Shown piece by piece: positions 16,472-40,193 of a stretch of DNA of 64,000 nt. The notes beneath the pieces are model-generated. The model saw nothing but the letters and a program-made list of their open reading frames with translations. It had not been told where the DNA came from and searched no databases. The stretch is from Candidatus Tayloriibacteriota bacterium (GTDB lineage: Bacteria; Patescibacteriota; Minisyncoccia; Phycocordibacterales; PALSA-1337). A program made the position numbers and the translations under genes. The DNA lies in NCBI GenBank assembly GCA_037129895.1, contig JBAXUB010000003.1, positions 2,699 to 66,698 of the forward strand, in the 5' to 3' direction. The stretch's first letter is position 1. Each line of letters starts with the position of its first letter.

Positions 16472-18798
<2,327 letters not shown>

Positions 18799-23763: not shown

Positions 23764-23769
23764 AAATAT

Positions 23770-24906
23770 ATGAGACCTATAGACGTACGCAGATCATATG
23801 AAAAGAAGGGTTTTACAAAACCGGTTTTCGAATATCGTCCAGATTGGCCATATATCAGCGTAGGTTTCGGAGATGAACAGGATTATCTGATAGAGAATCT
23901 GAGTCTACTCATATCATCGGGTATGGGGATATCTAGTGCACTAGAAGCGATCAGAGTTTCGATAAAGGGTAGGAGATTGAAGAAGATCACCAAAGCCATA
24001 GAGTCTATGGTGAATGACGGCATGCCTCTCTGGCAAGCATTCGAGGTGACGAAATTATTATCTGATCGAGTTATATCGATCATCAGATCAGGTGAAGAAG
24101 CGGGAAAACTTCCAGAACACCTGAACTTGGTGACTATACAGACACACAAGGAAAAAGTCTTCAATTCTAGACTGAAATCAGCTCTACTATATCCTGGCAT
24201 CGTCCTCATCTTGGCTTTCATCGTCGCTGTCGGTAGTACATGGATCGTCCTGCCAAAACTGGTGTCAGTATTTCAAACAGCCAAGGGAGATCTGCCATTC
24301 GCAACGAAGACGATGTTGTGGTTGGGTACATTTATGTCAGATTATGGTGCTATCGTGGCGCCAGCCGTCATTGCGGCGGTTCTCGTACTAGTTTTCTTTG
24401 TCTTTTTCTTCAAGAAAACCAAGTTCATCGGGGATTATATATTGTTCTCGATTCCAGGAGTGAGGTCACTCATACAAGGCGTCGAATTGGCGAGGTTCGG
24501 GTATATAACCGGGGTATTGTTGCAAGCGGGATTCCAGGTCAATGAAGCATTGGAATCAGTGAAGAAAGGCACAACATACGCACAATATAGGAAGTTCTAT
24601 GAGCATCTCCAGCTCAATATCATAAACGGCGAATCATTCAAGAAATCGGTTTCATCATTCAAGAAGGCTGATAAATATCTACCAATCCCTATTCAGCAAC
24701 TTATTTTCTCTTCTGAACAGTCTGGAAAGTTATCCGAAACTCTGATCAAGATCGGAGTGATATTCGAAGAAAAGACCGAAGCTATGTCGAGAGATCTGAG
24801 TACAGTATTGGAACCAGTCATCTTGATCGTAGTTGGTCTAGTCGTCGGTTTCGTCGTGCTTGCGATCATGGGACCAATATATGGATTATCAAATCAAATA
24901 TTATAA
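23770..24906 (+). CDS. pilC: Type IV pilus platform protein (PilC/GspF family)
   Basis: It has duplicated T2SSF domains and 3 TM segments. Confidence 0.85.
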   Translation: MRPIDVRRSYEKKGFTKPVFEYRPDWPYISVGFGDEQDYLIENLSLLISSGMGISSALEAIRVSIKGRRLKKITKAIESMVNDGMPLWQAFEVTKLLSDRVISIIRSGEEAGKLPEHLNLVTIQTHKEKVFNSRLKSALLYPGIVLILAFIVAVGSTWIVLPKLVSVFQTAKGDLPFATKTMLWLGTFMSDYGAIVAPAVIAAVLVLVFFVFFFKKTKFIGDYILFSIPGVRSLIQGVELARFGYITGVLLQAGFQVNEALESVKKGTTYAQYRKFYEHLQLNIINGESFKKSVSSFKKADKYLPIPIQQLIFSSEQSGKLSETLIKIGVIFEEKTEAMSRDLSTVLEPVILIVVGLVVGFVVLAIMGPIYGLSNQIL

Positions 24907-25330
24907 TAGAGGGTTTTCTTTGGTAGAACTTTTGATAGTGATAGGCATCATTGCACTATTCGCTACAACTTCTACTGGTGTCTATTATAGTCTGAGGTCA
25001 AATACTAGTTTGGAATTGAATACTGGAAGTATAGTAGAGGCCGTCCGACTCGCACAATCTAGCGCCCAATCGGGTAAAGGCGATGCAAAATGGGGGGTCA
25101 AAATATCTGCCAATCAGTTGACGATCTTCGAGGGCAATAGTTATTCTGCTAGGAATGCTTCAGCCGATCAGGTCTATGGTATCTCGGGGGATGTCAGCAT
25201 GAGTGGTGTTAGCGAGATAGTTTTCGAGAAGGTCACGGGTGCAACGACTGGTGCGGGTACGATCACGGTTACCAACGGTTCTGGAGTTAGGAATATTATA
25301 ATAAATGAAAAAGGAACAGTTATATATTGA
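24881..25330 (+). CDS. Pilin-like protein
   Basis: It carries the prepilin motif 'RGFSLVELLIVIGIIALFA'. Confidence 0.6.
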   Translation: MDYQIKYYNRGFSLVELLIVIGIIALFATTSTGVYYSLRSNTSLELNTGSIVEAVRLAQSSAQSGKGDAKWGVKISANQLTIFEGNSYSARNASADQVYGISGDVSMSGVSEIVFEKVTGATTGAGTITVTNGSGVRNIIINEKGTVIY

Positions 25331-27551
25331 TATGTATAATAGAACTGATAAATCAAATACTCACTTGGCTCGCTCTGTTCGTACGAGTCGCTCGGCTGGA
25401 TTTTCTCTAGTCGAAATACTCGTTTCGATCTCTATATTCGTTATATTCGTCATAGCGGCGTCGGGTACCATAACTGATGTATCGAGACAGTCAAAGAATT
25501 CTGCCAACAAGGAAAGAGCAGCAGTCCTCGTAGAAGAGGCATTCGAAGCATCGAGAAATATTCGCGATGCCAATTTCGATAATCTCATCGATGGCTCATA
25601 CGGACTTTCTACATCGAGTAATATGTGGAATTTTTCTGGAACGTCTGATCTCACAGATCTGTTTACTAGAGTGATCAATATTTCGACAATCAGTCCTGAT
25701 CAGAAGAAGATCTCCGTGGCTGTTTCCTGGGCTGATCAGGCTTCAACTTCCAACACCTTTTCCATGAGTACATATCTCACACGTTGGCGTACCATTCTGA
25801 ACAATCAAGCAGGACTCACAGTGAACAAATCGGTAGTGAACCATGGCGGATCTAAGGTCGCTGCTGATTTTGCACCATATATGGCTGGTACTACTACGTT
25901 GACAGTTGGAGTTGCATCTATGCTAGATCCTGGATCTTACACAATCACCGAAAGTGTTGACCCAAATTACATTCAAACATTCAGTGGGGATTGTGATAGT
26001 GGTGGTAATATCACACTTGGCGCTAGTACTACCAATACTTGTCTCATCACCAATGAAGAAAAGCCTTCTAGGCTCACAGTGACCAAGGTGGTGACGAATC
26101 ATGGTCTATCAAAAACTATCTCAGACTTTACTCTGCTCGTAGATGCAAATCCAGTCACTTCTGGTGTAACAAATACTTTCAATTCTGGTATACATACAGT
26201 TTCTGAGGTTGCAGATAGTAGTTACAACACCACATTCAGCGGTGATTGTAATTCTATAGGTTCTGTCACACTAGCACCTAATACCACAAAAGCTTGTACA
26301 TTGACCAATGAAGAAAATCTAGCAAGCATATATATTACGAAAACAGTTATCAATCATGGTGATTCTAAGGTAGCCGCCGATTTTCAACCTTATCAAGTTG
26401 GGAATGCATCGGGTACAACTACGGTTAGTCTGAATGCTACAACAACCAAGAATTCTGGCACGTACTACGTCTCAGAGGTGATCGTTAATAAATATACGAA
26501 AACATATAGTGGGGATTGCAATGCGAGTGGTTTGATCACTCTGACTAGTGGAACAACGAAGTATTGTCACCTAACAAATGAAGAAGTACTTGTGAATGCA
26601 GTCCCTGACGTCACCACTCCTACAGTCTCATCTATTACCAATACCACTGCCACTCTCGGTGCGACTGTCACATCACTCGGCGTTCCAGCATCTATATCTG
26701 CACGCGGAACGTGTTGGGGAACGTCACCATCACCAACGACGAATTGTGTAGCCGAAGGCAATACGACAACTGGCGCATTCACTCAAGCTAGGACAGGACT
26801 CGCTATGGCTACTACGTATTACTATCGAGGTTATGCAACGAATACTACTGGCACGGGGTATTCTGCTGACGGTACATTCACAACGACTGGTTGTTCGACC
26901 GCATCATCTGTAGTTGGTACTCCGACGCTGTATGATTCTGCTTCATCAAACTCGGCCCTGGTCTCGAAGCCTACAGGAGTTACAACTGGTGACATCATGT
27001 TCGCACATATTCTACATAATGCTGCTAATAATAGTGATCGCTTGAATGCTATCCCTACGGGTTGGGTCCAAATCGCTCGCCACAGAAATGGAAATTACAA
27101 TCAGGCATTGTATTATCACGTCGCTGATGCAGCCGAGGGGGCCAATTATACTTTTGGCTTTTCGGGAAATATCAAAGCCGCGATTACTGTATCGGCATAT
27201 AGAGGCTGCTTCAATACAGCCAATCCTATAGCAGCCTCTTCTAGTGTTGAATATGTTGCGAATAATACTACATACCGTGCTGATACGATGACGTTACCAT
27301 CTGCCAATAGTACGATCCTCATGTTCCCAAGCATGTTTACTACTACAGTACGTACGTTCGCAAATCCTCTAACTCAGTCCGGTGGTTGGACAGAGGACTA
27401 CGATCAAGGTAGTACAGCGTCTGACTTCTCGAGAGCTGGGTATCGCAAGTTCATGTCTGCGTCTGGTGCAACGAATGTTATAGATAGTATCGGTCAGTCA
27501 GGGAGCACAGTTAAACACGCCTTTGGTGTAGGACTCACGCCGATCCCATGA
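25305..27551 (+). CDS. Large pilin-like protein with N-terminal prepilin motif and ≥3 internal ~90-aa repeats (possible tip adhesin)
   Basis: N-terminal 'SAGFSLVEILVSISIFVIFVIA' is followed by repeats such as 'VNHGGSKVAADFAPY...', 'NHGLSKTISDFTL...' and 'NHGDSKVAADFQPY...'. The C-terminal region is Thr/Ser-rich. Confidence 0.6.
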   Translation: MKKEQLYIDMYNRTDKSNTHLARSVRTSRSAGFSLVEILVSISIFVIFVIAASGTITDVSRQSKNSANKERAAVLVEEAFEASRNIRDANFDNLIDGSYGLSTSSNMWNFSGTSDLTDLFTRVINISTISPDQKKISVAVSWADQASTSNTFSMSTYLTRWRTILNNQAGLTVNKSVVNHGGSKVAADFAPYMAGTTTLTVGVASMLDPGSYTITESVDPNYIQTFSGDCDSGGNITLGASTTNTCLITNEEKPSRLTVTKVVTNHGLSKTISDFTLLVDANPVTSGVTNTFNSGIHTVSEVADSSYNTTFSGDCNSIGSVTLAPNTTKACTLTNEENLASIYITKTVINHGDSKVAADFQPYQVGNASGTTTVSLNATTTKNSGTYYVSEVIVNKYTKTYSGDCNASGLITLTSGTTKYCHLTNEEVLVNAVPDVTTPTVSSITNTTATLGATVTSLGVPASISARGTCWGTSPSPTTNCVAEGNTTTGAFTQARTGLAMATTYYYRGYATNTTGTGYSADGTFTTTGCSTASSVVGTPTLYDSASSNSALVSKPTGVTTGDIMFAHILHNAANNSDRLNAIPTGWVQIARHRNGNYNQALYYHVADAAEGANYTFGFSGNIKAAITVSAYRGCFNTANPIAASSSVEYVANNTTYRADTMTLPSANSTILMFPSMFTTTVRTFANPLTQSGGWTEDYDQGSTASDFSRAGYRKFMSASGATNVIDSIGQSGSTVKHAFGVGLTPIP

Positions 27552-27558
27552 TGATCCT

Positions 27559-28092
27559 ATGATTTTCCATTCATTAAATATGAAACAAGTAAAACAAATA
27601 TCAGGCTTCAGTTTAGTAGAGACGCTAGTATACATAGCGATATTTTCGGTGCTCATTATTTCGATCACGAATTTCTTTGGTACGATGTCGGCATCTCGTA
27701 TACGCAATCAACTGACCCTAGAGGTCAATGATCAAGGCGCGAAAGTGATGAAGACGATAACTCAAGCGCTGAGGAATGCTAGTCAGGTCAACAGTCCGAC
27801 GATAGGGAATACGGGTGCGAGTCTCAGTCTAGTGACTGTGGCTCCTGTAACATCGCCGACAGTATTTTCTCTGAGTAATGGCACGATATTTGTAACGGAA
27901 GGGGCGGGAGTTGCAACAGCACTAACCAACAACAAGGTTATTGCGAATAGTCTCGTGTTCGCGAACTTATCACATCCATCAACTCCGAACATTGTGAAGA
28001 TCAGCTATACACTGACTAGTTCCACTACTGCCTCAGGTCCAGGTGGACAGTATTCATTTACTTTCAATGGAAGTGGGGCACTCAGGAAATAA
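27559..28092 (+). CDS. Pilin-like protein
   Basis: It carries the prepilin motif 'SGFSLVETLVYIAIFSVLIISI'. Confidence 0.6.
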   Translation: MIFHSLNMKQVKQISGFSLVETLVYIAIFSVLIISITNFFGTMSASRIRNQLTLEVNDQGAKVMKTITQALRNASQVNSPTIGNTGASLSLVTVAPVTSPTVFSLSNGTIFVTEGAGVATALTNNKVIANSLVFANLSHPSTPNIVKISYTLTSSTTASGPGGQYSFTFNGSGALRK

Positions 28093-28093
28093 T

Positions 28094-28525
28094 ATGAAAA
28101 AATATCAATTAAATAAAGATTCAAAGGCAGCTCGACGCTCCGAGAGCATCTCTCAAGGTGGTTTTGCGACTCTATTCATCGTGATCGTTCTAGGGGCTGT
28201 TGTTCTGGCCCTCATATTCAACTTATCAACTAGTAGTGTTTGGTCTATCAAAGGCAGTACCGACACGAAAAATTCGAATGTAGCGAAGTCACTCACAAAC
28301 GCTTGTGCAGAAGTCGCTCTAGAGGCATTGCGTGAGAATCACAGTCTAACAGGTACAGCAAGTCTGGTATTGGATGGAAATACTTGTGAATATACAGTTA
28401 CGAATACTGGTGGTGATACGAGACAGGTTGTAGCGTCGAGTACTTATAGTGGCATCGTACGTAAGTTGACTATAAATACTAGTACTTTCAATCCACTGGT
28501 CATATCTAGCTGGGTTGAGAATTAA
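28094..28525 (+). CDS. Minor pilin (PilX-like)
   Basis: It starts at 'MKKYQLNK...' with a degenerate prepilin N-terminus 'GGFATLFIVIVLGAVVLAL'. It is paralogous to 15914-16465. Confidence 0.5.
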   Translation: MKKYQLNKDSKAARRSESISQGGFATLFIVIVLGAVVLALIFNLSTSSVWSIKGSTDTKNSNVAKSLTNACAEVALEALRENHSLTGTASLVLDGNTCEYTVTNTGGDTRQVVASSTYSGIVRKLTINTSTFNPLVISSWVEN

Positions 28526-28613
28526 ACGAGTATATGAGTTGATAGAGAAAATGCGCATATTTCATTTTATCTGCAACATAGTGTAAAATATAGACGATCT
28601 AGTTCAAAAAAAC

Positions 28614-29612
28614 ATGAAAAAAATCACGATCATTTCAGCATGTGTTATTTTGCTCATTGCTATCGCTGGTGGATTGTTTCTGTTTGGGCAATTCCAAAAT
28701 CAATCTCTAGGAACGATCAAATACGGCTATCAGGACTGGCCAGGTGTATTGCCTTATCTCATTGCATACGAAAAAGGATTCTATAAAAATAGAGGTTTAG
28801 ATGTTGTATTGGTCAAAGAAGACTCATATGTCAAGGAACTTGAGGATCTGATAAGCGGCGCTATAGATTTCAGTGGGGACGTTGCCCTCATCGATGTGGT
28901 AAAAAGAGTCAGTAAAGGGGTAAATCTCTCAGTTGTCTTGGCAACTGATTACTCGAACGGCGCGGATGGATTTGTTGCCAATAGTTCCGTGAAAAGTATC
29001 ACTGGCCTCAAGGGCAAGAATGTGTCGGTCGAGATGGATACGTTGGGCGAATATCTACTATATGAAGCACTGAAAAAGGACAATTTGAAACTGACTGATA
29101 TAAAGGAGGTCAATCTTTCTGCACAGGACGCCGCACAGGCTTTCATAGACAAAAAGGTAGATGCAGCTGTTAGTTATGGACCGAACTTGAGTCGTGCTGT
29201 TACGGATGGTGATGGGGCGATACTGTATTCATCAGCCAATTCGCCTGGACTCATCATCGATGTTCTAGCTTTTCGAAGCGATTTTGTAAAAAACAATCCA
29301 GCCAAAGTCTCGGCTGTAGTCGGTGCCTATGCCGATGCTATGGATTTTATAGAAAAGAATCCCGGTGATGCCTATACTATAGGTGCGAAATATTTTGGGA
29401 TTTCGGTTGAAGCACTCACAGGTCAATTGAAGGGTATAAAATTGATGTCTATAAGTGAAAATATGGATCTCATGTCATTCGGAAGCGGCAAGGATTCTAT
29501 CCATGGTCTTATAAATAATGCGTATGATTTTCTGAAATTAAAAGGTGATATAGTTGGAGACATAGATACGACAGAGATAGTTGATCATAGTTATGTGCGT
29601 GGAATAATGTGA
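28614..29612 (+). CDS. Membrane-anchored periplasmic-binding protein (NMT1/SsuA/TauA-like SBP)
   Basis: It has an N-terminal TM helix and an SBP type-2 fold, e.g. '...GYQDWPGVLPYLIAYEKGFYKNRGLDV...'. It sits directly upstream of the sensor genes. Confidence 0.55.
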   Translation: MKKITIISACVILLIAIAGGLFLFGQFQNQSLGTIKYGYQDWPGVLPYLIAYEKGFYKNRGLDVVLVKEDSYVKELEDLISGAIDFSGDVALIDVVKRVSKGVNLSVVLATDYSNGADGFVANSSVKSITGLKGKNVSVEMDTLGEYLLYEALKKDNLKLTDIKEVNLSAQDAAQAFIDKKVDAAVSYGPNLSRAVTDGDGAILYSSANSPGLIIDVLAFRSDFVKNNPAKVSAVVGAYADAMDFIEKNPGDAYTIGAKYFGISVEALTGQLKGIKLMSISENMDLMSFGSGKDSIHGLINNAYDFLKLKGDIVGDIDTTEIVDHSYVRGIM

Positions 29613-29619
29613 TACCAAT

Positions 29620-30867
29620 ATGTCCATCAAACTCAAATTAAGCTTGGTAATAATTTCTGTCTTAACCATCGTCGGTTCAATGATGTGGGGCATACTATAT
29701 TGGCAGAATAATAGAGTATTGAATGATCATATGGCAGCTGATATCAAGAATGCTGTTAGCTACAATTCTCAGTTGGTCAATGCATATATGGACAGGATCC
29801 AATCGAGTGTCACTAGTTTAGCTAGCGACCCGTCGATAGTCGATGCCTTGGTGAGTAGAGATAAACGTAAACTTGAGCAGGCGAGCCTCAAGTTCACTAC
29901 TATTGTTGAGTCTGAAAATAGTGTTGAGGATATCGCCCTATTCGAAGTCCGTGGATCGGGGTGTATTGTTATCGCAACTAGTAAAGTAGCCCAGTCGATT
30001 GTCGGACAGAATTTCTCTGAACGCGATTATTGTAAAGGCGTCCTGAAAATTAAGGAGACATATGTATCATCTGCGTTCGTCGGGGTTGTCACAAAACATC
30101 CGAATATATCTGTCGTAGTGCCGGTCGAGAATTCTAATGGAGAGATGATCGGGTTTGTGATGGGTGTCGTCAAATTTGACGAGTTACGTGGATATTTGTG
30201 GGATCTTCAGAACGATAGCAAGGTAGAAATAATGGATCGTAATGGAGTGATGTTCCTGGACACGACGAGCAAGATCGAAACCCTAGGTAATCTATCTACT
30301 GTCGAAGATGCAGAGCTCATGGAAATAGAGCAGTCGATATCGAACGGTGTACACGAATGGTATTTTAGAGATGATGATAACTTCATTGGGTACAAGTTCA
30401 ATGGATCGATGACGATCATATATGAACAATCAGCAACTAGTTTGATGGGTCTTTCACATTCCCTGAATTATACGATTCTGGCGTCCTTACTCGTATTGAT
30501 CATCCTGTCATTCTTGGTTATATTTATCTTTTTGGACAGTATTACCAATCGAATTTCGAGGTTGAGTAAAATCTCTAGTGATATTGCCAATGGGCAGTTC
30601 AATATAGAGTTGAATGAAAAAGATATGAAAGCCAAAGATGAGACAGCTATTCTAGCTATGACTTTCGTTGATATGGCAAAGAAACTCAAGGACCTCTATG
30701 ACAATCTGGATAATAAAGTAAAGGAGCGTACTAGTGAATTGGAGAAAACTGGGGCCGATCTCAAGAAAGCTCTAGATGAATCGAGCAGACTCAATAAAGT
30801 CATGGTAGGTAGGGAAATCGAGATGGCCAAATTGAAGAAGGGGCAGGAGCAACAAAAAAATTCATGA
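29620..30867 (+). CDS. Membrane sensor with Cache-like domain and HAMP, no output domain
   Basis: Layout is TM, extracytoplasmic Cache-like domain, TM, HAMP ('ISRLSKISSDIANGQF...'), then coiled coil. It overlaps the next gene by 4 nt. Confidence 0.55.
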   Translation: MSIKLKLSLVIISVLTIVGSMMWGILYWQNNRVLNDHMAADIKNAVSYNSQLVNAYMDRIQSSVTSLASDPSIVDALVSRDKRKLEQASLKFTTIVESENSVEDIALFEVRGSGCIVIATSKVAQSIVGQNFSERDYCKGVLKIKETYVSSAFVGVVTKHPNISVVVPVENSNGEMIGFVMGVVKFDELRGYLWDLQNDSKVEIMDRNGVMFLDTTSKIETLGNLSTVEDAELMEIEQSISNGVHEWYFRDDDNFIGYKFNGSMTIIYEQSATSLMGLSHSLNYTILASLLVLIILSFLVIFIFLDSITNRISRLSKISSDIANGQFNIELNEKDMKAKDETAILAMTFVDMAKKLKDLYDNLDNKVKERTSELEKTGADLKKALDESSRLNKVMVGREIEMAKLKKGQEQQKNS

Positions 30868-33674
30868 GGATAAGACGTAAAATAGCAGTTTCTTTTGTAT
30901 CTGGTTTCATTATTATTTTGTCGTTACTTATGCTGGTTCTGGGGGTTTACACTACGAGTATTATAAGGGCGAATGTATATTCGTATTTGCAGGCATCGAA
31001 TATCAGTAAAGCTGAACATTTGAAGACCTTCATTCAGGATCAACAGAAGACAGCGGTTATTTTGGCGGCATCATCTGTATATAGGGATTTCTTGTTGGAA
31101 CCTATAAATAGTAAACAATATAGTCTGTTGAAAGGCAAGATCGATAAACGTTTGATCAGAACGATAGAGTCTGACCCAGAGATTTATGAATCTATGATCA
31201 TAGATGCTCGTGGTGTGATCGTGGCTTCTTCAATCAAAACGAATGAAAAACTCGATAAATCTGGTGATGAATATTTCACCAAAGCCAAGGAAGGTGTATA
31301 TATCAAGGATATGTATTTTTCAGAGATAGATGGTCGAGTGAATTATACTGTTTCTGCACCGATCATCGCCGATGATGGGAAATTCTTGGGCGTGACGGTT
31401 GTCAGGTATTTACCAGAACATATCTATAAGATCGTAAATAGTAGTAGTGTGATCGGGCAGTCGGAGGAAAATCTACTAGTGAACAAGGATGGCCTATTCA
31501 TCACACCATCTGTTTTTCTGGGTTCTGAAGCTGTTTTGAAACAGAAGGATACTAGCCAGGTCAATGGTAGTTGTTCCGACCGTCGGGGTATCGATTCTGC
31601 TAGTAAGAGCGACATCAATATGCTGAAGGGTAGTCTGGCATCGGGTGTTACTGAGGTGACTGATTATCGTGGTGTACAAGTAGTTGAGACCAATGTGTAT
31701 ATACCTGACACGGGATGGTGTCTCATCACCAAGGTAGATGTCTCTGAAGCTTTGTCTTTCCGCTATAACATGATCTGGTATTATATATTGGCTGCACTAT
31801 TTGCAGAGATCATCTTCATTGCTGTTTCATACTATGTGTCAAGGAAGATAACCAGTCCTATTGAAGCTCTGCATGATGCTGTAGATAAGGTATCCCCATC
31901 CAGTCTAGATTTTAAGCCTGGGATTACTTCGAACGATGAGATAGGTAAACTTTCTGGCGCTTTCGGTGATATGGTCTTGGCTGTGAAGCAGGCCTTGAAT
32001 GATACCAAACAGAAAGTTATTGAACAGACCAGTGAATTGAATGCAAAAACTATTGAGGCTGATCTGCAGAAGACAGCTGTACTGAACATCCTCGAAGATG
32101 TCGAAGTGGAAAAGAAAAAAACGGAGCAATTGGCTAGTGATTTGCTAAAATTCAGACTGGCTGTAGATAATGCTATAGACCAAGTGGTCATAACCGATGT
32201 AGAAGGAATTGTTATATATGGGAATAGTGCAGTAGAGAAAATCACGGGGTATAAACCAGAAGAAGCTCTAGGCAAGAAGGCGGCAGTACTCTGGAAGGTA
32301 CCGATGCCTAATGATTATTACAAGGACATGTGGGATACGATAAAGATTCAAAAGAAACCATTCATAGGCGAGATACGTAATAAAAAGAAAAATGGCGATG
32401 TATACACGGCTATTATCAGTATTTCTCCGGTTCTCGATGATAAGGGTGACATCATCTTCTTTGTGGCCATTGAGCGAGATATTACAGATCGCAAGAAGAA
32501 TGAAGAACAGGTCAAGAAATTGCTAGCGGATACTCAGGAACAAGCAAAGTCATTGGATATAGCCAGATTGAAGGATGACGCGATCTTAGAAGGTATCGGT
32601 GACGGTATAATCACGACCAACGAAGACGGTATCATAACCTTGGTCAATGAGTCGGCATTGGAGATGTTCGGTTACAAGAGTGAGGAGATGATAAACAAAC
32701 AAGTCGTCGAGATAATGAGGATTACTGATGAGACAAGAGAAGAGATATCGATGAAACTCCGTCCTATAACGATTGCTCTCGAAACAGGAAAGAAAACAAG
32801 TGTTCCACTTGGCTCTACGTACTATTATAGTCGAAAAGATGGCACTAGATTCCCGTCAGGTATCACAGTCACACCGTTTAGGTTGGACGGCAAGATCATG
32901 GGTACGATCGAAGTATTCCGAGATATCACTATCGAAAAGGATATAGATAAGGCAAAGACAGAGTTCGTATCACTAGCATCTCATCAGCTTCGAACACCTC
33001 TGTCGGCTATCGGCTGGTATACAGAAATGCTCTTGGATGGTGATGCTGGTAAGATTTCAGTCAAGCAGAAGGATTATTTGAATGAGATATATAATGGCAA
33101 CAAGAGGATGGTCAATCTCGTCACATCCCTATTGAATGTATCGAGGATAGAACTTGGCACATTCTCTGTGGAACCAGAGCTGACTGATATTAGAGAGATA
33201 GTACAAAGCGTAGTTGATGAAATGAAACCTATGATCGTGGCGAAGAAAATGGATGTTAAGCTTGATATTGAAGAGGGTCTCGAAAAGATAATGGTTGATC
33301 AGAAACTCATAAGAATGGTTTATCAAAATCTGACCTCAAATGCGCTCAAATATACTGGAGAAGGAGGTCATATAACTATCGAGGTCAAGGTCAAGGACAA
33401 TGATCTGTTGAGTTCAGTCTCTGATAATGGTTTTGGGATACCAAAGAGTCAACAATCGGGAATATTCCAAAAGCTGTTCAGGGCTGATAATGCCAAGACT
33501 CAAGATGCAGATGGAACAGGATTGGGCTTGTATATAATAAAGTCGATAATAGAGCAATCAAGTAATGGCAAAATGTGGTTCGAATCCATTGAAAACAAGG
33601 GTACGACGTTCTACTTCACTATTCCAAAGAGTGGTGTAACTCCAAAGAAGGGCAGTCGACCATTGGGAAGTTAG
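30864..33674 (+). CDS. Sensor histidine kinase (Cache-HAMP-PAS-PAS-HisKA-HATPase_c)
   Basis: It has the H-box 'SLASHQLRTPLSAI', two PAS blocks, the N box and the G boxes 'DNGFGIP...GTGLGLYIIKSII'. Confidence 0.85.
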   Translation: MRIRRKIAVSFVSGFIIILSLLMLVLGVYTTSIIRANVYSYLQASNISKAEHLKTFIQDQQKTAVILAASSVYRDFLLEPINSKQYSLLKGKIDKRLIRTIESDPEIYESMIIDARGVIVASSIKTNEKLDKSGDEYFTKAKEGVYIKDMYFSEIDGRVNYTVSAPIIADDGKFLGVTVVRYLPEHIYKIVNSSSVIGQSEENLLVNKDGLFITPSVFLGSEAVLKQKDTSQVNGSCSDRRGIDSASKSDINMLKGSLASGVTEVTDYRGVQVVETNVYIPDTGWCLITKVDVSEALSFRYNMIWYYILAALFAEIIFIAVSYYVSRKITSPIEALHDAVDKVSPSSLDFKPGITSNDEIGKLSGAFGDMVLAVKQALNDTKQKVIEQTSELNAKTIEADLQKTAVLNILEDVEVEKKKTEQLASDLLKFRLAVDNAIDQVVITDVEGIVIYGNSAVEKITGYKPEEALGKKAAVLWKVPMPNDYYKDMWDTIKIQKKPFIGEIRNKKKNGDVYTAIISISPVLDDKGDIIFFVAIERDITDRKKNEEQVKKLLADTQEQAKSLDIARLKDDAILEGIGDGIITTNEDGIITLVNESALEMFGYKSEEMINKQVVEIMRITDETREEISMKLRPITIALETGKKTSVPLGSTYYYSRKDGTRFPSGITVTPFRLDGKIMGTIEVFRDITIEKDIDKAKTEFVSLASHQLRTPLSAIGWYTEMLLDGDAGKISVKQKDYLNEIYNGNKRMVNLVTSLLNVSRIELGTFSVEPELTDIREIVQSVVDEMKPMIVAKKMDVKLDIEEGLEKIMVDQKLIRMVYQNLTSNALKYTGEGGHITIEVKVKDNDLLSSVSDNGFGIPKSQQSGIFQKLFRADNAKTQDADGTGLGLYIIKSIIEQSSNGKMWFESIENKGTTFYFTIPKSGVTPKKGSRPLGS

Positions 33675-33714
33675 GTGGTAATATAGACTATGAGGTGTTA
33701 TTATTCTGAAATAT

Positions 33715-34092
33715 ATGGGAAAAAATAAAAAAATATTGATCATCGAAGATGAGGAGACCTTGCGGAAAGCAGTAAAAGATAAGCTTGAGATAGCGTCGTT
33801 CTCGACTGTTACTTGTAGTGATAGTGTTGTGGGATTGGAGACAGCACTCAGAGATCATCCGGATCTAATATTGTTGGATATCGTTATGCCCAAGATGAGC
33901 GGTTTGGATATACTCAAGGAATTACGAAAAGATGTATGGGGTAAGACTGCAGAGGTTATCATGTTTACGAATTTGAGTGATGATCAGAGTATGGACGAAG
34001 CAAAGAGACTAGGAGTGAGGGATTATTGGGTGAAGTCTTCGTTGCGTTTAGATGATATATTAACAATGGTGAAATCAACACTTGGTATATAG
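33715..34092 (+). CDS. Single-domain response regulator (REC only)
   Basis: The motifs 'ILIIEDEE', 'DLILLDIVMPKMSG' and 'VIMFTN' are present. Confidence 0.8.
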   Translation: MGKNKKILIIEDEETLRKAVKDKLEIASFSTVTCSDSVVGLETALRDHPDLILLDIVMPKMSGLDILKELRKDVWGKTAEVIMFTNLSDDQSMDEAKRLGVRDYWVKSSLRLDDILTMVKSTLGI

Positions 34093-34497
34093 GTGTTAAT
34101 AAAATTTATGGATAAAAAAATAATTCTTGTAACTGAAGATGAATCGAGGTTGCGCAATGTCCTCAAGGACAAACTGACCCTCGAGGGTTTCATAGTTTTT
34201 GAGGCAAAAGATGGAGAGGAGGGATTGAAATTGGCACTCAGTGAATATCCAGATCTCATGCTCGTCGATATATTCATGCCGAAGATGGATGGTCTCACGA
34301 TGCTCCGCAAGATCCGTGAAGACAGTCGTGGCAAGAAGATCAAGTTCATCATCCTCACCAATGCTGATGAGACTGACAAGATTGCCGAGGCTATGCAGGT
34401 TGCCGGCGTAGAAGATGACAAGACATTCGATTATTATGTGAAGTCTGATATCAAGATGGAAGATGTGATAGCCAAGGTCAAAGGGAAGTTGGGGTAA
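34093..34497 (+). CDS. Single-domain response regulator (REC only)
   Basis: The motifs 'IILVTEDE', 'DLMLVDIFMPKMDG' and 'FIILTN' are present. The likely true start is 'MDKKIILV' at ATG 34108. Confidence 0.75.
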   Translation: MLIKFMDKKIILVTEDESRLRNVLKDKLTLEGFIVFEAKDGEEGLKLALSEYPDLMLVDIFMPKMDGLTMLRKIREDSRGKKIKFIILTNADETDKIAEAMQVAGVEDDKTFDYYVKSDIKMEDVIAKVKGKLG

Positions 34498-34669
34498 TGA
34501 GTCACAAAAAAAATCGATAAAGGCAGACCTTTAGTGTTAGGAATATATCGTCAGTAGTGTAAGTGGTGGACATATAAACAAATATGTGGGACTATGTGGT
34601 CTGAACTGCTTTTTGACAAAAGCGCCGAGTCCCGACGGTAATTCGGGCTAAAACTAGTTAGGAGAGAAT

Positions 34670-35296
34670 ATGAAGAAACTAATATTAATTGGGGTGGTAT
34701 TTATATTTGTATCAGTGTTGACCGAAACTTTCGCACAGAACCTTATTCAAAATGGAAGTTTCGAATTTCCGGTAGTTGATCTTCAGCTTAGGGTTGATAC
34801 TGGAGCAACATGGCTTTCCGGTTGGGTTGTTGGTGGTACTGGTGATGTCTTTATTCACAATGGTCCGGCGAATGGTATTAACCAAGGTCCTGCTCAAGAT
34901 GGATTAAACTATTTGGATCTTAGTGGAGATGGACCGCCTCATGCATATGTTTACCAGGATCTTTCAACAGTTCCAGGTCTCACATATTCACTAAAGTTTT
35001 ATACTGGATCTTCAGGAGGCGTGTCGCCTATAATCAATATTCAACTTCAAGGAATGGGTATATTATTGAATACAAATCTAGCCCCTCTCGCACCAACCGC
35101 TGGTAAAATCAATTGGTTTGAGGAGACATTCTCCTTTGTATCCGATGCGAATTCAGTTCGACTTAGTTTCGTTGATACTTCAAGTTCAGACGACAACGCA
35201 AGTTATGTGGATAATGTTTCTGTCTCGATAATCCCTGAACCGACAACATTATTACCACTCGGATTAGTCGCCATGATCTTGTGGCGACGACGGTAA
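34670..35296 (+). CDS. Secreted protein with C-terminal PEP-CTERM sorting signal
   Basis: It has the signal peptide 'MKKLILIGVVFIFVSVLTETFAQ'. The C-terminus 'IPEPTTLLPLGLVAMILWRRR*' reads PEP, then a TM segment, then RRR. Confidence 0.55.
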   Translation: MKKLILIGVVFIFVSVLTETFAQNLIQNGSFEFPVVDLQLRVDTGATWLSGWVVGGTGDVFIHNGPANGINQGPAQDGLNYLDLSGDGPPHAYVYQDLSTVPGLTYSLKFYTGSSGGVSPIINIQLQGMGILLNTNLAPLAPTAGKINWFEETFSFVSDANSVRLSFVDTSSSDDNASYVDNVSVSIIPEPTTLLPLGLVAMILWRRR

Positions 35297-35453
35297 TCAT
35301 TGTGTGAGTATTTTACATACAACCAGACGAAAGTTTGGTTGTTTTTGTTTGAATGCTGTCAGAATTAAGACTTGAAATTGAGAAATGTTTATTGATATAC
35401 TATTCCTATAAAATATTTTAAATGGGCCGATTACTAACAGAAATACCCGAGGG

Positions 35454-35951
35454 GTGTTTTTTAATGCAACAAATATGATTCAATTTACACAAGAAGAGTT
35501 TGATGTCGCTAAAACAACTGGTGAGGCGCTGTACAAAACATTTGTAAGTGTATACTGTCCATACTTTAAGGAAAGGGTATCTTTTAATTCAAAAGGTCTA
35601 GAACATCTTAGGCTAAAAAGTCGGAACAAAGCAAGACTCCCTGCTGATCAGTTTATGCGTTTTAAGTTGATTAAGTTAGCACCACTGATTTTAGTTTCAT
35701 CTGGCACACTCCAGGGTATTTGGCAGACAAATAAGTTTGAGCCCAAGAGGATGCATAGCAGGACTGAAAATGTTTTGTCACTAGTCAATTATTATGAATT
35801 TACTGCAGTTATTAAGAGAGATCGAGTAAAGATTATTGTTAAACAAGTTGATAATGGTGAGATGTATTTTTGGAGCTTGATCCCATTCTGGGGTATGAAT
35901 ACGGAATATATGGAGAGGATTTTACATGACGGTGACCTTGAAAATGAATAA
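35454..35951 (+). CDS. Hypothetical protein
   Basis: A 165-aa ORF with no recognisable domain. Confidence 0.35.
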   Translation: MFFNATNMIQFTQEEFDVAKTTGEALYKTFVSVYCPYFKERVSFNSKGLEHLRLKSRNKARLPADQFMRFKLIKLAPLILVSSGTLQGIWQTNKFEPKRMHSRTENVLSLVNYYEFTAVIKRDRVKIIVKQVDNGEMYFWSLIPFWGMNTEYMERILHDGDLENE

Positions 35952-36305
35952 CAAAAAGCACCACGTTTCGGTGGTGCGTTTTGTTGGTGTCTGGTTACGG
36001 TTTAGAAACCGTGAGGGCGCGAACGCCCCAAACACCATTGAAAGTATACGCCAATTGGTATATGTGTCAAGAAGATGTAATAACTTGTTGCGGGGGCCGG
36101 AATCGCACCGACAATTTTCAGGTTATGAGCCTGACGGGTTACTGTTACCCTACCCCGCGATATTTTTCTAAGATTGGTCACCAACCTCACTTATCGGTCT
36201 ATTGTGCCATAAAAGGGGATTGGTTGCAAATGGTATTGTCAATGGGGTTGATTTATCGTCTTTTTTTCGCTATTGTATCTTGGTTGGGCAGGTGGGGTCA
36301 TGTTC

Positions 36306-36331
36306 GTTTGAAAATATATGTCGGCGTAGCT
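36306..36331. repeat. 26-bp direct repeat (gtttgaaaatatatgtcggcgtagct), copy A, followed by a degenerate tRNA-like 5' fragment
   Basis: It is identical to 36380-36405, which spans the upstream region and first 12 nt of tRNA-Met. Confidence 0.55.
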
Positions 36332-36393
36332 GTTGTAGTTTAGCCGGCACCAGGAGTATTGTAAGGTATGATGATATTAGTTTGAAAATATAT

Positions 36394-36467
36394 GTCGGCG
36401 TAGCTCAGGTAGTTAGAGCATAGCATTCATAAAGCTAAGGTCGAAGGTGCAAGTCCTTCCGCCGACA
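36394..36467 (+). tRNA. tRNA-Met (anticodon CAT; elongator or Ile-lysidine type)
   Basis: Acceptor GTCGGCG pairs with CGCCGAC, anticodon loop is TTCATAA, and T arm is GAAGG-TGCAAGT-CCTTC. Length is 74 nt. Confidence 0.75.
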
Positions 36468-36525
36468 CAATTCTGCATTATTAGTCCGTTGTTGTTTTAT
36501 AAAAACATTATAATATCTTTTTGAT

Positions 36526-37206
36526 ATGCCAATATTGAAATATGTAAATAAAGATTTCTTCAAATTATGGACTCCAACTATGGCTTATGTGCTGGGGTTC
36601 TTTGCTGCGGATGGGTATATGACATTGAATAAAAGGGGAGCGTACTTTTGGAATATTCAGATCACTGAGCGGGAGTTACTTCAAATGATCAAAGTGGTGA
36701 TCAATTCTCATCATAAGATAAGTGTGCGAAAAGGAAATGGTAGAGAGAAAGAGTTATATAGGTTGCAAATAGGAAGTAAAGAGATGTTTAACGATTTACA
36801 GAATCTCGGCTTTATTCCCGGAAAGACTTATAGTATGGCAGTGCCTAGTGTGCCAGCTAAGTTCTTTAGGGATTTTGTCAGGGGATATTTTGATGGTGAT
36901 GGAAATGTCTGGGTCGGGTATACTCATCGAAACAGGTGCACTAGACTTCTTACCCTATCTTCCAGCTTTACCTCATGTTCGAGGGCTTTTCTTGATGAAT
37001 TGAGATGTCGATTGAGACTATTTGGCCTAATTTCTGGTTCTGTATATACAGGAAAGGGTAAATTCTTTCGTTTGAAATATAGTGTACGTAGCTCTATGAA
37101 ATTATACGATTTCATGTATAATAGTCCACATCTGATACCAAGCAGGGATTTGTTCCTAGATCGAAAGAAGTCAGTCTTTGAAAGGTATCTGAAAATGCGC
37201 CCGTAG
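36526..37206 (+). CDS. LAGLIDADG homing endonuclease (double-motif, freestanding)
   Basis: It carries two LAGLIDADG motifs, 'LGFFAADGYM' and 'RGYFDGDGNVW'. The 3' end overlaps tRNA-Asp by 10 nt. Confidence 0.8.
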   Translation: MPILKYVNKDFFKLWTPTMAYVLGFFAADGYMTLNKRGAYFWNIQITERELLQMIKVVINSHHKISVRKGNGREKELYRLQIGSKEMFNDLQNLGFIPGKTYSMAVPSVPAKFFRDFVRGYFDGDGNVWVGYTHRNRCTRLLTLSSSFTSCSRAFLDELRCRLRLFGLISGSVYTGKGKFFRLKYSVRSSMKLYDFMYNSPHLIPSRDLFLDRKKSVFERYLKMRP

Positions 37207-37270
37207 TTTAGCTGGCTAAAACAATCCCCTGTCACGGGATAGACCGTGGGTTCGAGTCCCATCGGGCGCG
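37197..37270 (+). tRNA. tRNA-Asp (anticodon GTC)
   Basis: Acceptor GCGCCCG pairs with CGGGCGC, anticodon arm is ATCCC-CTGTCAC-GGGAT, and T arm is GTGGG-TTCGAGT-CCCAT. Confidence 0.85.
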
Positions 37271-37362
37271 CATAGATTTGAGATCAATAGGTAAGCCACA
37301 GAAAGTTCACGGGTCTAGAGGACTTGAGCTGTGGTATAATTTTTGTATAGAATTTGGATTAT
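37271..37362 (+). repeat. ~90-bp direct repeat copy 1 carrying an extended -10 promoter (TGGTATAAT at 37332-37340)
   Basis: It is near-identical to 42820-42917. It sits immediately 3' of tRNA-Asp and ends at the glycosyltransferase ATG. Confidence 0.65.
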
Positions 37363-38556
37363 ATGAATATCTGCTATATTTATCCGGGGTATCCGCCAGA
37401 AAATCACTCAGGTGGCGTGGGTACTTTTATTGAGGAATTAGTTAAAACAATTTCTAAGTATGGGACGCATAAGATTGATATCATCTCTCGAAGTGACAAA
37501 TATTTCGATAGCATTGAAAATCTTTCGACTAATGTCACATTATATCGCTTAGGGGAAACCCCTTTAGCGGAAAACAGTCCTGTCCTGTTGTTTCGTAATG
37601 AAGGTTTTCTCCGCCATTATGAAAGAGTGTTAGAGGTTGTAAAAATGATTAATGGCAAAAATCCGATAGATGTAATTGAAGTTGCAGATTGGGGAGCTGA
37701 AGGATTTTTGGTATTGAAGCAATTTTTGGATATCACACTTGTGCGATGTCATACGCCAGCCTTTGTTTCGGAGAGCTATAATCCGAGTAGTAGATCATAT
37801 CTTTCGGACAACATAAAATCATCTGAAAAGAGTATGCTGTCAATCGCTAAACACATTGTTTGTCCCAGTAGAAGTCTCATAGATGAGATTGATAAGCGGG
37901 TACATATTGGTTGTGTACCAAAAATTGAGTTATATCCCCTTGATCTTGGTGATATTAGGACAAAGCAGGACTACGCAATAACATCGAATGAAATAAGATT
38001 GCTTAGCGTTGGTAGAATTGAAGAGCGAAAAGGACAGGATATCATATACCAGGCGTGTCAGCTTATTTCAGAACAAAACAAATATAATATTAGTCTGGAC
38101 CTTATTGGAGCAGATACATATGTCGGAATCAACATGCTATTTAGTAAGTACTTCATTGAGAAGTTAGTAGAAAAGCCGACGTTCAAATTTAGGTTGCTTG
38201 GTGAAATGTCTAGAAAAAAGGTTTTAGAAATATATCAATATTACGATATCTATATTGGTGCATCGAGATTCGATAATTACCCATATACACTTCTTGAAGC
38301 AATGGGCGCAGGTTTGCCGGTGATAGGGAACAACAATTCTGGGATCAGTGAAATAATGATTAAAAACATAAACGGTTTAACGTTTGCTGGTAACTCGACA
38401 GAGCTTGCGAATTCGATTAATACACTTATTCAAGATCAAAAATTACGTGCGTACATAGGAGAGAACGCGAGAAGTTTTATTGAGACAAAATTGACACCTG
38501 GTGTGGTTTATCGTAATGTAATTAGAACGTATCAAAATATATGCAAAAAAGAATAA
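37363..38556 (+). CDS. Glycosyltransferase family 4 (GT-B)
   Basis: It has the N-terminal 'GGVGTFIEEL' and the C-terminal 'E.FG..LLEAMGAGLPVIG'. Start was taken at ATG 37363; the tracker's 37354 is a TTG. Confidence 0.7.
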   Translation: MNICYIYPGYPPENHSGGVGTFIEELVKTISKYGTHKIDIISRSDKYFDSIENLSTNVTLYRLGETPLAENSPVLLFRNEGFLRHYERVLEVVKMINGKNPIDVIEVADWGAEGFLVLKQFLDITLVRCHTPAFVSESYNPSSRSYLSDNIKSSEKSMLSIAKHIVCPSRSLIDEIDKRVHIGCVPKIELYPLDLGDIRTKQDYAITSNEIRLLSVGRIEERKGQDIIYQACQLISEQNKYNISLDLIGADTYVGINMLFSKYFIEKLVEKPTFKFRLLGEMSRKKVLEIYQYYDIYIGASRFDNYPYTLLEAMGAGLPVIGNNNSGISEIMIKNINGLTFAGNSTELANSINTLIQDQKLRAYIGENARSFIETKLTPGVVYRNVIRTYQNICKKE

Positions 38557-40193
38557 TTTCTCACAATAAAAACCTTGGAAAAAGACTAACTATGCAGTCA
38601 GATTTGCTGTTTTCAATTCACCATTTATTTCACAAAAAAGGTTTTAAAGAGATTAATACTCCAATATTAAGTTTTCCCACAAAGGAATATGGTGACGGTG
38701 AATTTGTTGTCGTGTCCAAGCTCCAGCCTGGAAAGTTCTATTCTCTTCCGCATTCTCCCCAATTGTATAAACAATATTTATTGGCTCGTTTTCCAGAACT
38801 GAAAGCATACTATCAGATAGCGTCAAATTTTCGACCTGAAATTGGTGATAATACACACGCACAAGAATTTCATCAAATAGATTTCGAAATTGCAAATTTA
38901 TCTCTGGACGATGTGCGACGAACTATTGAGCAAATTTGTAGTAAAGCTTTTTCACTTATTGACATTAGGCCGACCTATACCGTTATGAGATTTGAAGACT
39001 CTGTGTGTCTTTATGGCTCCGATTCGCCTGATCTTAGATACAGCGGTGGGGAATTTAGAAACGACGGAAAGGAAGTATATTTCGAAATACCAATTAGAGA
39101 TGTCCTAGATTTGCAGAAGTTGAAATCGCAGTTACGTGCAAGAACAGGTGTTAGTATGAGAATCGGACCAAAGTCATTTGTATTTGCGTCTCAAAAGGGT
39201 AACTTATATATACTAGGAGATTTCCGAAATAGGCTGATCAAAAATTATGTATTACGTCTACATTCTAAATGGTCATTCGTCTGGCTGATCGATTTACCTC
39301 TATTCAAGCGCGATGGCAATGGGCAAATTTCCACCTTTCATCATCCGCAAATGTCACCAATGAGTCATTATGCTTTTTGGAAAGCCGCAAAATCAAAAGA
39401 TATTAACGAAGTACTTTCTTTGAGGGGAAATGGATGTGAGCTCATAGTCAACGGAATGGAGCTTGGAGGAGGTAATGTTCGTAATAACGATTTAAAGATA
39501 CAAAAGGAAATTCTTAACATTTGTGGAGTAAGTGACACATCGCTTAGATCTACGTTTAAACCATTACTTGATATGCTCAGATCGCATCCGAATTACAAAA
39601 GCTCTGGAGCAGCTGTAGGCCTTGATCGTCTTATGATGTTATTAACAAAGAGCGATTCTCTTTCAGATAACCGAGCATTTCCACAAGATAATAATGGCAC
39701 GGAGTATTTCGGTGGCCCCTCAAACGTTTCTATGTCAGATTTACAGGAATTAGGTTTAGATTATGAACACCCGATAATAACCCAGTCACGGCAAACAGCA
39801 ATACGACTCGTTGAGGCAAATAACAATTTTATTCACGATCGAAAACATATACAGAATGTTGAGCAAAATGCAGTCGCGATCGCTATCAATGAAGGAGTTT
39901 TACCAGACGAAATACTCATTTTAAGACTAGCGGCGCATTGGCATGATGTCGGACGAAATGATTGGTTGCCACGTGAAATTGAACCCCACGCAGAAATTTC
40001 TATGAAAGCATTTAGAGAATGGGCGAATACGATGGGGATGCCAAATTCAGTAATTACTCCTGTTGAGTTATTGATAAAGGAACATGATGAACTATCGAAG
40101 ATCGAGCATCCTGATAAATTATTAAAAATCTTGCAAGACGGTGATAGGTTGGATGTTATTAATGTTGAGAGAGTGCAGAGGATATTGGCGTAG
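38541..40193 (+). CDS. Class IIb (AspRS-like) aminoacyl-tRNA-synthetase catalytic domain without anticodon-binding domain, fused to a C-terminal HD phosphohydrolase domain
   Basis: Motif 1 is 'FKEINTPIL'. Motif 2 is 'LPHSPQLYKQYLL...FRPEIGDNTHAQEFHQIDFEIA'. Motif 3 is 'ELGGGNVRNNDLKIQ...AAVGLDRLMMLLT...AFPQ'. The C-terminus carries 'AAHWHDVGR...EHD...DGDRLD'. Confidence 0.6.
   Translation: MQKRIISHNKNLGKRLTMQSDLLFSIHHLFHKKGFKEINTPILSFPTKEYGDGEFVVVSKLQPGKFYSLPHSPQLYKQYLLARFPELKAYYQIASNFRPEIGDNTHAQEFHQIDFEIANLSLDDVRRTIEQICSKAFSLIDIRPTYTVMRFEDSVCLYGSDSPDLRYSGGEFRNDGKEVYFEIPIRDVLDLQKLKSQLRARTGVSMRIGPKSFVFASQKGNLYILGDFRNRLIKNYVLRLHSKWSFVWLIDLPLFKRDGNGQISTFHHPQMSPMSHYAFWKAAKSKDINEVLSLRGNGCELIVNGMELGGGNVRNNDLKIQKEILNICGVSDTSLRSTFKPLLDMLRSHPNYKSSGAAVGLDRLMMLLTKSDSLSDNRAFPQDNNGTEYFGGPSNVSMSDLQELGLDYEHPIITQSRQTAIRLVEANNNFIHDRKHIQNVEQNAVAIAINEGVLPDEILILRLAAHWHDVGRNDWLPREIEPHAEISMKAFREWANTMGMPNSVITPVELLIKEHDELSKIEHPDKLLKILQDGDRLDVINVERVQRILA

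Follow-up and report, generated by a model that had tools for sequence, protein, structure and literature searches.

A probable LAGLIDADG homing-endonuclease gene, free-standing in the leader of tRNA-Asp of a Patescibacteria genome, and its relatives at the same site

The stretch analysed here, called the window, covers 64,000 nucleotides (nt) of contig JBAXUB010000003.1 from a Candidatus Tayloriibacteriota bacterium. Between its tRNA-Met(CAT) and tRNA-Asp(GTC) genes lies an open reading frame (ORF) that encodes a LAGLIDADG protein. It is probable that this ORF is an intact and presumably active, free-standing homing-endonuclease gene, which is lodged in the 5' leader of tRNA-Asp(GUC), downstream of tRNA-Met(CAU), and spreads by homing. 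The family to which it belongs is confined to Patescibacteria (Paceibacteria-type) genomes, where it occupies a single site, the tRNA-Asp leader downstream of tRNA-Met. The enzyme is of a known kind; the system is new by its site in a tRNA leader, by a stop codon located in the tRNA, by a promoter derived from tRNA-Asp and by a linked tRNA intron devoid of ORF. In the searchable literature, neither this system nor any LAGLIDADG gene linked to a tRNA in the Candidate Phyla Radiation (CPR) was found to be described.

The enzyme and its single site

LAGLIDADG homing endonucleases make site-specific double-strand cuts in targets of 14-22 base pairs (bp), leaving 4-nt 3' overhangs. The 226-amino-acid (aa) protein of the window matches a single Pfam family, PF14528 (LAGLIDADG_3, E=2.9e-11), and carries two motifs, GFFAADGY (with aspartate D29) and GYFDGDGN (with D125). 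On an alignment of 77 homologues, which was used to check the motif residues, both aspartates are kept, D29 being invariant and D125 present in at least 95% of the sequences. The AlphaFold2 model, made with 25 homologues (pLDDT 86.5, pTM 0.86), consists of two alpha-beta-beta-alpha-beta-beta-alpha halves. The double-motif LAGLIDADG gene announced by the original prediction, which was made from the DNA letters before this analysis, is therefore borne out by the Pfam match, the two motifs and the predicted fold. The ORF is intact and the enzyme probably active.

The original prediction had also called for a comparison with characterised endonucleases. The best Foldseek matches are I-AniI, I-Tsp061I, I-HjeMI and the bI3 maturase (probability 1.00 for the first three; TMq 0.61-0.64 for I-AniI and I-Tsp061I and 0.58-0.67 across the top five; 15-22% identity), and a sequence search of the PDB is led by the same proteins. 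The likeness resides in two LAGLIDADG motifs with conserved aspartates and in the predicted pseudo-dimeric fold. However, these proteins are encoded within group I or archaeal introns of rRNA or mitochondrial genes, whereas the window enzyme is free-standing in a tRNA leader and its stop codon lies inside the tRNA. The Pfam search of the protein gave LAGLIDADG_3 alone, the GIY-YIG catalytic domain being absent. NCBIfam holds no specific family for this endonuclease; only intein-bearing proteins were matched, far below the cut-off. A phage origin was considered and rejected, the best phage homologues being at most 28% identical. The start codon at 36526 agrees with the family consensus MPIYKK, while the 208-aa call on the source contig corresponds to a later start.

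A protein search with a threshold of E<=1e-3 retrieved 2810 homologues of about 225 aa, the top ones 55-71% identical, and those that are named come from Taylor-, Kaiser-, Yonath- or Paceibacteria. A genome search limited to a single representative of each species gave at least 485 loci that code for a relative. Mean identity within the family is about 53%. The insertion site was examined in the best 80 genome loci and 10 metagenome loci, the classes of overlap with the tRNA being counted over 88 endonuclease-positive loci. In nearly all the loci examined, the gene stands between tRNA-Met and tRNA-Asp. Among the 80 genome loci, about 70 have a tRNA-Met(CAT) gene on the same strand ahead of the endonuclease, with tRNA-Asp(GTC) downstream; the distance from tRNA-Met to the start of the ORF in these 80 loci is mostly 50-90 nt and at times 2-6 nt.

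The typical ORF of the family borrows U8-A9-G10 of tRNA-Asp as its stop codon. It ends at nt 8-10 of the tRNA in 46 of the 88 loci, at nt 13-15 in six loci where A9 is G, and, in another frame, at nt 19-24 in ten; seven loci have their own TAA, TGA or TAG 3-20 nt before the tRNA. About 70% of the ORFs end inside the tRNA, and the stop-position classes indicate that the coding sequence abuts nt +1 of tRNA-Asp, with no spacer of its own. The ORF is intact in 81 loci and truncated or frameshifted in the remaining 7.

In the window, the endonuclease gene is the sole long ORF between the two plus-strand tRNAs. Its TAG (37204-37206) corresponds to nt 8-10 of tRNA-Asp, and nt 1-10 of the tRNA double as its final codons and stop. 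The 10-nt overlap described in the original prediction is therefore real, although the stop codon is not properly within the D-arm since the D-stem strictly includes only G10. In the same way, the ORF does occupy the predicted interval, at 57 nt past tRNA-Met (58 nt by Rfam's end) instead of 59. The gene is also free-standing and intergenic, as proposed, but it is no one-off invader of a tRNA cluster: it belongs to a large family fixed at the same site.

Empty, occupied and decayed loci, and expression from the leader

Between about a quarter and a third of related loci contain the gene, and about two thirds lack it. These proportions come from an unbiased sample of 80 metagenome loci, fetched through a neighbouring membrane protein and blind to the endonuclease, and the counts refer to those where the interval between tRNA-Met and tRNA-Asp is readable. 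In 18 of them, tRNA-Met is followed by a 22-115-nt spacer and tRNA-Asp without endonuclease; eight have a longer spacer and no endonuclease either, and ten carry the gene. The suggested comparison of this interval among related genomes thus revealed both presence and absence of the ORF (10 occupied loci, 18 empty ones with a short spacer). In L133 (related loci are cited by their L numbers), a remnant limited to the C-terminal 49 residues persists beside tRNA-Asp (E=8e-8). A selfish homing gene would be expected to show such a coexistence of empty, occupied and decayed loci, whereas a host gene retained by all would not.

By tRNA sequence, the window's nearest loci are L087, L097 and L081, all of which lack the endonuclease. 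The L087 spacer aligns with that of the window up to TTTTGATATGCYAAT; the first eight nt of the ORF are kept, followed by 6 nt and tRNA-Asp. From this alignment, L087 is best explained as having arisen by deletion. Of the host relatives, L044 is the closest by GatA (70% identical to that of the window) and its tRNA-Asp differs by one base, but its endonuclease is only 49% identical and ranks 57th of 87. The most similar endonucleases (64%) adjoin very different tRNA-Asp genes. The single case of L044, a close host with a distant endonuclease, disfavours simple vertical descent.

Spreading by homing would start with cleavage of endonuclease-less alleles in or beside tRNA-Asp. Repair would then copy the gene from the donor, the two highly conserved flanking tRNA genes serving as homology arms that could be used across species; the tRNA-Met gene of the window is likely to be the left arm. 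A free-standing endonuclease gene among tRNA genes is already known from phage T4, where SegB, encoded in a tRNA cluster, recognises a motif conserved in tRNA and by gene conversion takes the flanking tRNA genes along (PMC2330249). SegB is however a phage GIY-YIG enzyme, whereas the present one is a LAGLIDADG enzyme of cellular Patescibacteria, located at one fixed intergenic site that overlaps a tRNA.

Most members of the family share a relic upstream of the gene. The motif CTGTCA occurs within 60 nt upstream of the start in 51 of the 88 endonuclease-positive loci (0.75 expected), exactly 17 nt away in 36 of them, within the consensus tGGTTAGtataAT.tcCTGTCACG.g.TATAAT-N6-ATG/GTG. The spacing GGTTAG-N9-CTGTCAC equals that of the D-loop and anticodon loop of tRNA-Asp, which identifies the relic as a fragment of this tRNA (nt 17-42) whose stems have turned into TATAAT boxes. 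The second of these boxes lies 6 nt before the start codon, so that a leaderless mRNA is predicted. In another class of loci, TATAAT-ACTGTCA[CT] stands immediately 5' of ATG. The motif CTGTCAC is absent from the empty spacers, from the window and from its nearest endonuclease relatives (L002, L022). Conservation of an anticodon-stem-like hairpin in the relic was rejected (61.7% of paired cells versus 62.1% in shuffles, no covariation). The pattern of conservation points to a sequence-specific constraint on the invariant CTGTCAC, which could for example be a protein-binding site.

The position of the ORF, between the promoter region of tRNA-Asp and nt +1 of the tRNA, suggests that it would be transcribed as a tRNA-Asp 5' leader. 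Once cut by RNase P at +1, a leader would have lost the stop codon, and ribosomes translating it would stall. Full-length enzyme would then be made only from the unprocessed precursor, which would keep a potentially toxic nuclease at a low level. In basal relatives, the ORF starts 2-3 nt past tRNA-Met and is closed by a stop of its own shortly ahead of tRNA-Asp, a layout that looks like tRNA-punctuated processing.

The tRNA-Asp intron and the candidate target

The window holds no group I intron, either in the region or in the whole stretch, and no intron model was matched even at E<=1. Both flanking tRNAs are complete, which bears out the statement that the gene is not intron-encoded. Relatives were also checked for an ORF inside a larger intron and none was found: wherever tRNA-Asp has an intron, the ORF is located 5' of exon 1. 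An intron separates U35 from C36 of tRNA-Asp in 35 endonuclease-positive loci where the 3' exon could be recovered, to which three loci cut by contig ends can be added. These introns of tRNA-Asp(GUC) measure 194-260 nt, carry no ORF and belong to at least two sequence types (loci within L007-L071). The Rfam group I model gives 82-91 bits for L058, L061 and L027 and 36-53 bits for the second sequence type. ARAGORN overlooks the intron-split genes. It is highly improbable, and for the window already refuted, that the endonuclease ORF belongs to a larger intron, of group I or another kind, that interrupts a tRNA gene; introns in the adjacent tRNA-Asp of relatives would lend this idea some weight, as would a mention of CPR tRNA introns (PMC8172020), but the complete tRNAs of the window, the lack of any intron model match and the position of the ORF outside ORF-less introns all speak against it.

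The intron accompanies the endonuclease. It was found in 38 of 90 loci with the gene and in none of 27 without it (Fisher p=8e-6, two differently sampled sets being pooled), and none of 30 tRNA-Asp genes from endonuclease-negative loci is split. I-SspI provides a comparable case of an endonuclease tied to a group I intron in the anticodon loop of a tRNA gene. However, I-SspI is encoded inside the intron and is a member of another enzyme family, PD-(D/E)xK. Strong group I matches (68-81 bits) also occur just upstream of tRNA-Met in L036 (1824-2038, minus strand), L031 (2539-2757, minus strand) and L032 (2522-2758, plus strand); they probably sit in the neighbouring initiator tRNA-Met gene. For CPR tRNA introns, the passing mention cited above is all that was found in the searchable literature. 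In the 16S and 23S rRNA genes of CPR, insertions that are often group I introns carry LAGLIDADG endonucleases, for which target-specific homing was proposed (PMC11270868). Both the bacterial radiation and the enzyme superfamily are those of the window protein, but these endonucleases sit inside the insertions, and that paper makes no mention of tRNA, whereas the present family is located outside introns, at tRNA-Asp.

The target of the enzyme most likely includes the anticodon region of tRNA-Asp, to which three hints point: the CTGTCAC relic, the position of the linked ORF-less intron (nt 35/36) and the variant anticodon stems. Among tRNA-Asp genes that are endonuclease-positive and intron-less, 33% have the G30:C40 pair, against 67-71% in the other two groups (p=0.005 and 0.0008), and the anticodon stem ATCCC/GGGAT, which is that of the window, occurs in 8 of 49 of them versus none of 65 others (p=0.0008). 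The consensus of the 5' part and D-arm of tRNA-Asp is alike in endonuclease-positive and endonuclease-negative genes and gives no support to a target at the junction between leader and tRNA +1.

In phages, cooperation of a free-standing endonuclease with an ORF-less intron is an established concept called collaborative homing (reviewed in PMC3984707). Here the host gene is a bacterial tRNA, the enzyme is a LAGLIDADG protein and the window copy has no intron; an ORF-less intron partner exists in 35-38 relatives. A collaborative scheme, which would refine the homing interpretation given above, can be put forward tentatively, as conceivable but short of probable. The enzyme would cut intron-less tRNA-Asp near nt 35/36, the ORF-less intron or a variant stem would protect the carrier, endonuclease and intron would be inherited together, and the CTGTCAC of the promoter would act as an autorepression operator. 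Autorepression is known for I-TevI. Several observations agree with such a scheme: the intron occurs solely beside the endonuclease, it lacks an ORF and matches the Rfam group I model, the relic has the spacing of tRNA-Asp and is kept as sequence and not as a stem, and G30:C40 is rarer and ATCCC/GGGAT enriched in the endonuclease-positive intron-less genes. On the other hand, more than half of the endonuclease-positive loci are intron-less, 15 of these with stems common in endonuclease-negative loci, and the window has neither intron nor relic. Furthermore, co-conversion would link intron and endonuclease just as well if the target were not the insertion site, and the loci are not phylogenetically independent. 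It is somewhat doubtful that all parts hold at once, i.e., that this is a cellular LAGLIDADG collaborative homing with an anticodon-loop target, a tRNA-Asp-derived promoter with a CTGTCAC operator and a translation throttled by RNase P.

The presence of an intron beside many copies of the gene might also suggest a host role for the protein, for example as a maturase of the tRNA-Asp intron or as a DNA-binding regulator of the tRNA operon, with loss of mobility. Domesticated LAGLIDADG proteins such as WhiA are known (PMC3984707), and the strong conservation, the high proportion of intact ORFs, the fixed genomic position and the occurrence of the maturases I-AniI and bI3 among the structural neighbours would fit. 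This domestication is nevertheless quite improbable: about two thirds of related loci, the nearest relatives among them, lack the gene, remnants and truncations occur, the catalytic aspartates are retained, and more than half of the carriers, among them the window, have no intron to mature.

Several points weigh against the interpretation of the gene as a homing gene with a target in tRNA-Asp. The strong conservation (about 53%) at one site across deep lineages could also result from vertical inheritance with many losses. The Mantel correlation of the endonuclease with GatA or the neighbour protein (r=0.17-0.20) has no power, since the control pair, GatA versus the neighbour protein, gives r=0.18. 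The association between intron and endonuclease has p=0.057 within the unbiased sample and needs pooling to be significant. The differences in the anticodon stem may be lineage effects, the statistics ignoring kinship. In the window itself, tRNA-Asp is intact and intron-less, which leaves self-immunity unaccounted for, and the candidate target is a predicted one. The junction between the 3' end of the endonuclease and the tRNA (AAAAT/GCG) resembles the leaders of empty sites. Lastly, the window lacks the relic and promoter of most relatives; it has a lone TATAAT (Table 1), and a scan of the plus strand found no full sigma-70 consensus upstream of the ORF.

Partial tRNA copies, neighbouring genes and significance

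Upstream of the endonuclease, the window contains an exact duplication of 26 bp, GTTTGAAAATATATGTCGGCGTAGCT, that comprises the flank and the first 12 nt of tRNA-Met, as the original prediction had stated. This 26-mer occurs exactly twice, at 36306 and 36380, with no occurrence expected (100 shuffles, 3 mismatches allowed). The degenerate tRNA-like remnant reported after the first copy is also confirmed, since it keeps register with the real tRNA-Met through the D-loop (GCT-GTT-GTAGTT versus GCT-CAG-GTAGTT) before diverging. Its nt 1-12 are exact, CAG at nt 13-15 is replaced by GTT, and it folds as a modest hairpin (z=-1.8).

Of 378 tRNAs from the window and the fetched loci, about 18 have a similar partial copy 38-155 nt upstream (Table 1), and more such copies flank intron-bearing tRNA-Asp genes. 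Their common anatomy consists of a short AT-rich flank, exact nt 1-12 of the tRNA, replacement of CAG or CAA at nt 13-15 by GTT, a D-loop GG with a few bases, then divergence; for example, GTAGCT-GTT-TTGGTAGA stands against GTAGCT-CAG-TTGGTAGA. Elsewhere, a perfect palindrome takes the place of nt 13-15 (L044: TCCGCCAGCTGGCGGA). An identical change of three bases in unrelated tRNAs and genomes cannot stem from random decay. Folding of these pseudo-tRNA leaders is inconsistent, from a long hairpin in L106 (z=-3.3) to values of +0.6 to -1.8 in others.

It is unlikely that the tRNA-Met duplication is a scar of cleavage by this endonuclease and subsequent repair, as was first proposed. Some features are consistent with such a scar: the endonuclease ORF ends in a like partial copy of tRNA-Asp in L011, L016, L037 and L042, CGTAGCTCA-type 5' sequences are common to tRNA-Met and tRNA-Asp, and SegB drives tandem amplification through microhomology at the tRNA 5' end (PMC13096335). 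However, the same anatomy, including the change of CAR to GTT, is found at tRNA-Thr, tRNA-Met and tRNA-Asp genes of endonuclease-less loci such as L106, L113, L149 and L155, this identical change in unrelated tRNAs is unlike random repair, and the flank has no homology to endonuclease 3' ends. The duplication can thus not be assigned to this enzyme. By analogy, a break-and-repair origin of the 5' partial duplications is possible.

Other sources were also considered. Integrating elements and CRISPR (clustered regularly interspaced short palindromic repeat) spacers are known to yield tRNA fragments (PMC9897764) but do not fit units of 38-76 nt. A resemblance of the 14-nt flank GTTTGAAAATATAT to the endonuclease 3' end TTTGAGAAATWTAT was rejected as a chance similarity of AT-rich sequences. 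An nhmmer profile of 45 endonuclease 3' ends, searched against 326 tRNA leaders, found only the remnant of L133 (E=0.35) and not the window leader.

Some other peculiarities of these tRNA genes deserve mention. In the spacer after tRNA-Met, a second tRNA-Met 3' end (…GATCCCCACTCCCGACAC) follows 130-150 nt of GC-rich hairpin sequence in L113 (4864-5119), L123 (5569-5811), L145 (1094-1260) and L119 (7030-7180); either the 3' part of tRNA-Met has been duplicated there or the gene contains an insertion. The T-loop of the window tRNA-Met is non-canonical (TGCAAGT, with G at position 55; 36442-36458), as in L087, L097, L085 and L022. Likewise, GGGGTCAGCACCC T-arms are found in the tRNA-Asp genes of several relatives, non-canonical T-loops occurring among L006, L008, L014 and L023.

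Table 1. Features of the tRNA cluster in the window, and examples of intron-split tRNA-Asp genes and partial tRNA copies among relatives
Feature	Position	Strand	Basis or remark
Initiator-type tRNA-Met(CAT)	36087-36159	-	ARAGORN; Rfam tRNA 58.7 bits; opens the conserved cluster
26-bp direct repeat, copy 1	36306-36331	+	14 nt of flank and tRNA-Met nt 1-12
Decayed partial tRNA-Met copy	36320-36379	+	Sequence; register with the intact gene
26-bp direct repeat, copy 2	36380-36405	+	Overlaps the functional tRNA-Met start
tRNA-Met(CAT)	36394-36468	+	ARAGORN; Rfam 61.6 bits; conserved upstream neighbour
Spacer upstream of the ORF, 57 nt	36469-36525	+	-10-like TATAAT at 36509-36514, 11 nt before ATG
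LAGLIDADG homing-endonuclease ORF, 226 aa	36526-37206	+	Motifs at residues 22-31 and 118-126; TAG within tRNA-Asp
tRNA-Asp(GTC), intron-less	37197-37271	+	ARAGORN; Rfam 67 bits
Intron-split tRNA-Asp, examples	L009:3669-3945; L058:1265-1541		
Partial copies at tRNA-Thr	L113 (twice in tandem), L149, L022, L044		
Partial copies at tRNA-Met	Window, L042, L044, L050		
Partial copies at tRNA-Asp	L106, L155; L011, L016, L042, L113		L106 and L155 without endonuclease
Partial copies, coordinates	Window 36306-36393; L113:6955-7030; L106:3133-3208; L155:1340-1486; L044:2817-2886, 4126-4280; L042:27-65; L050:2795-2868		

In relatives, the gene order is gatC, gatA, a small membrane protein gene, tRNA-fMet, tRNA-Met, the endonuclease when present, tRNA-Asp, tRNA-Thr, prfB and ftsE; the cluster order fMet, Met, endonuclease, Asp is conserved, and relatives keep the initiator tRNA-Met beside the cluster. 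In the window, gatA (18746-20281) is followed at about 20254 by a homologue of the conserved small membrane protein. This homologue, together with the 70% identity of GatA to that of L044, places the window genome in the endonuclease-bearing group. The pair formed by gatA and the membrane protein gene (18746 to about 20860), which adjoins the tRNA cluster in relatives, is here separated from it by about 15 kilobases (about 20900-36000). This block encodes a type IV pilus ATPase, a 936-aa dCache/PAS sensor, two response regulators and a DUF642 protein.

The DUF642 protein (34670-35296, plus strand) combines a signal peptide with a PEP-CTERM-like tail (IPEPTTLLPLGLVAMILWRRR), which one would not expect in a genome of the Patescibacteria type. 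A bidirectional terminator-like hairpin (35958-35977, GCACCAC…GTGGTGC), with T-runs on both strands, separates the upstream ORF from the initiator tRNA-Met. At 1.3 kilobases downstream of tRNA-Asp, a 550-aa protein (38541-40193, plus strand) carries from residue 8 a class II synthetase catalytic domain of the Asp/Lys/Asn type fused to a C-terminal HD domain, an unusual architecture in which no anticodon-binding domain was matched. By the lack of this domain, it may resemble paralogues of the EpmA/GenX type.

To our knowledge, free-standing homing endonucleases have been studied almost solely in phages, and LAGLIDADG enzymes almost solely inside introns and inteins. Here, a LAGLIDADG gene is found in the leader of an essential tRNA across hundreds of genomes, with empty, occupied and decayed alleles open to comparison. 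The family constitutes a set of compact meganucleases (about 225 aa) whose targets could be read off natural empty sites. Furthermore, an intron-split tRNA-Asp escapes tRNA finders and so would seem absent from the annotation of many Patescibacteria. The stop codon located inside the tRNA raises the question of how tRNA processing and translation compete. If the collaborative scheme is true, this family would represent a living intermediate on the route from a free-standing endonuclease and an intron to a mobile intron.

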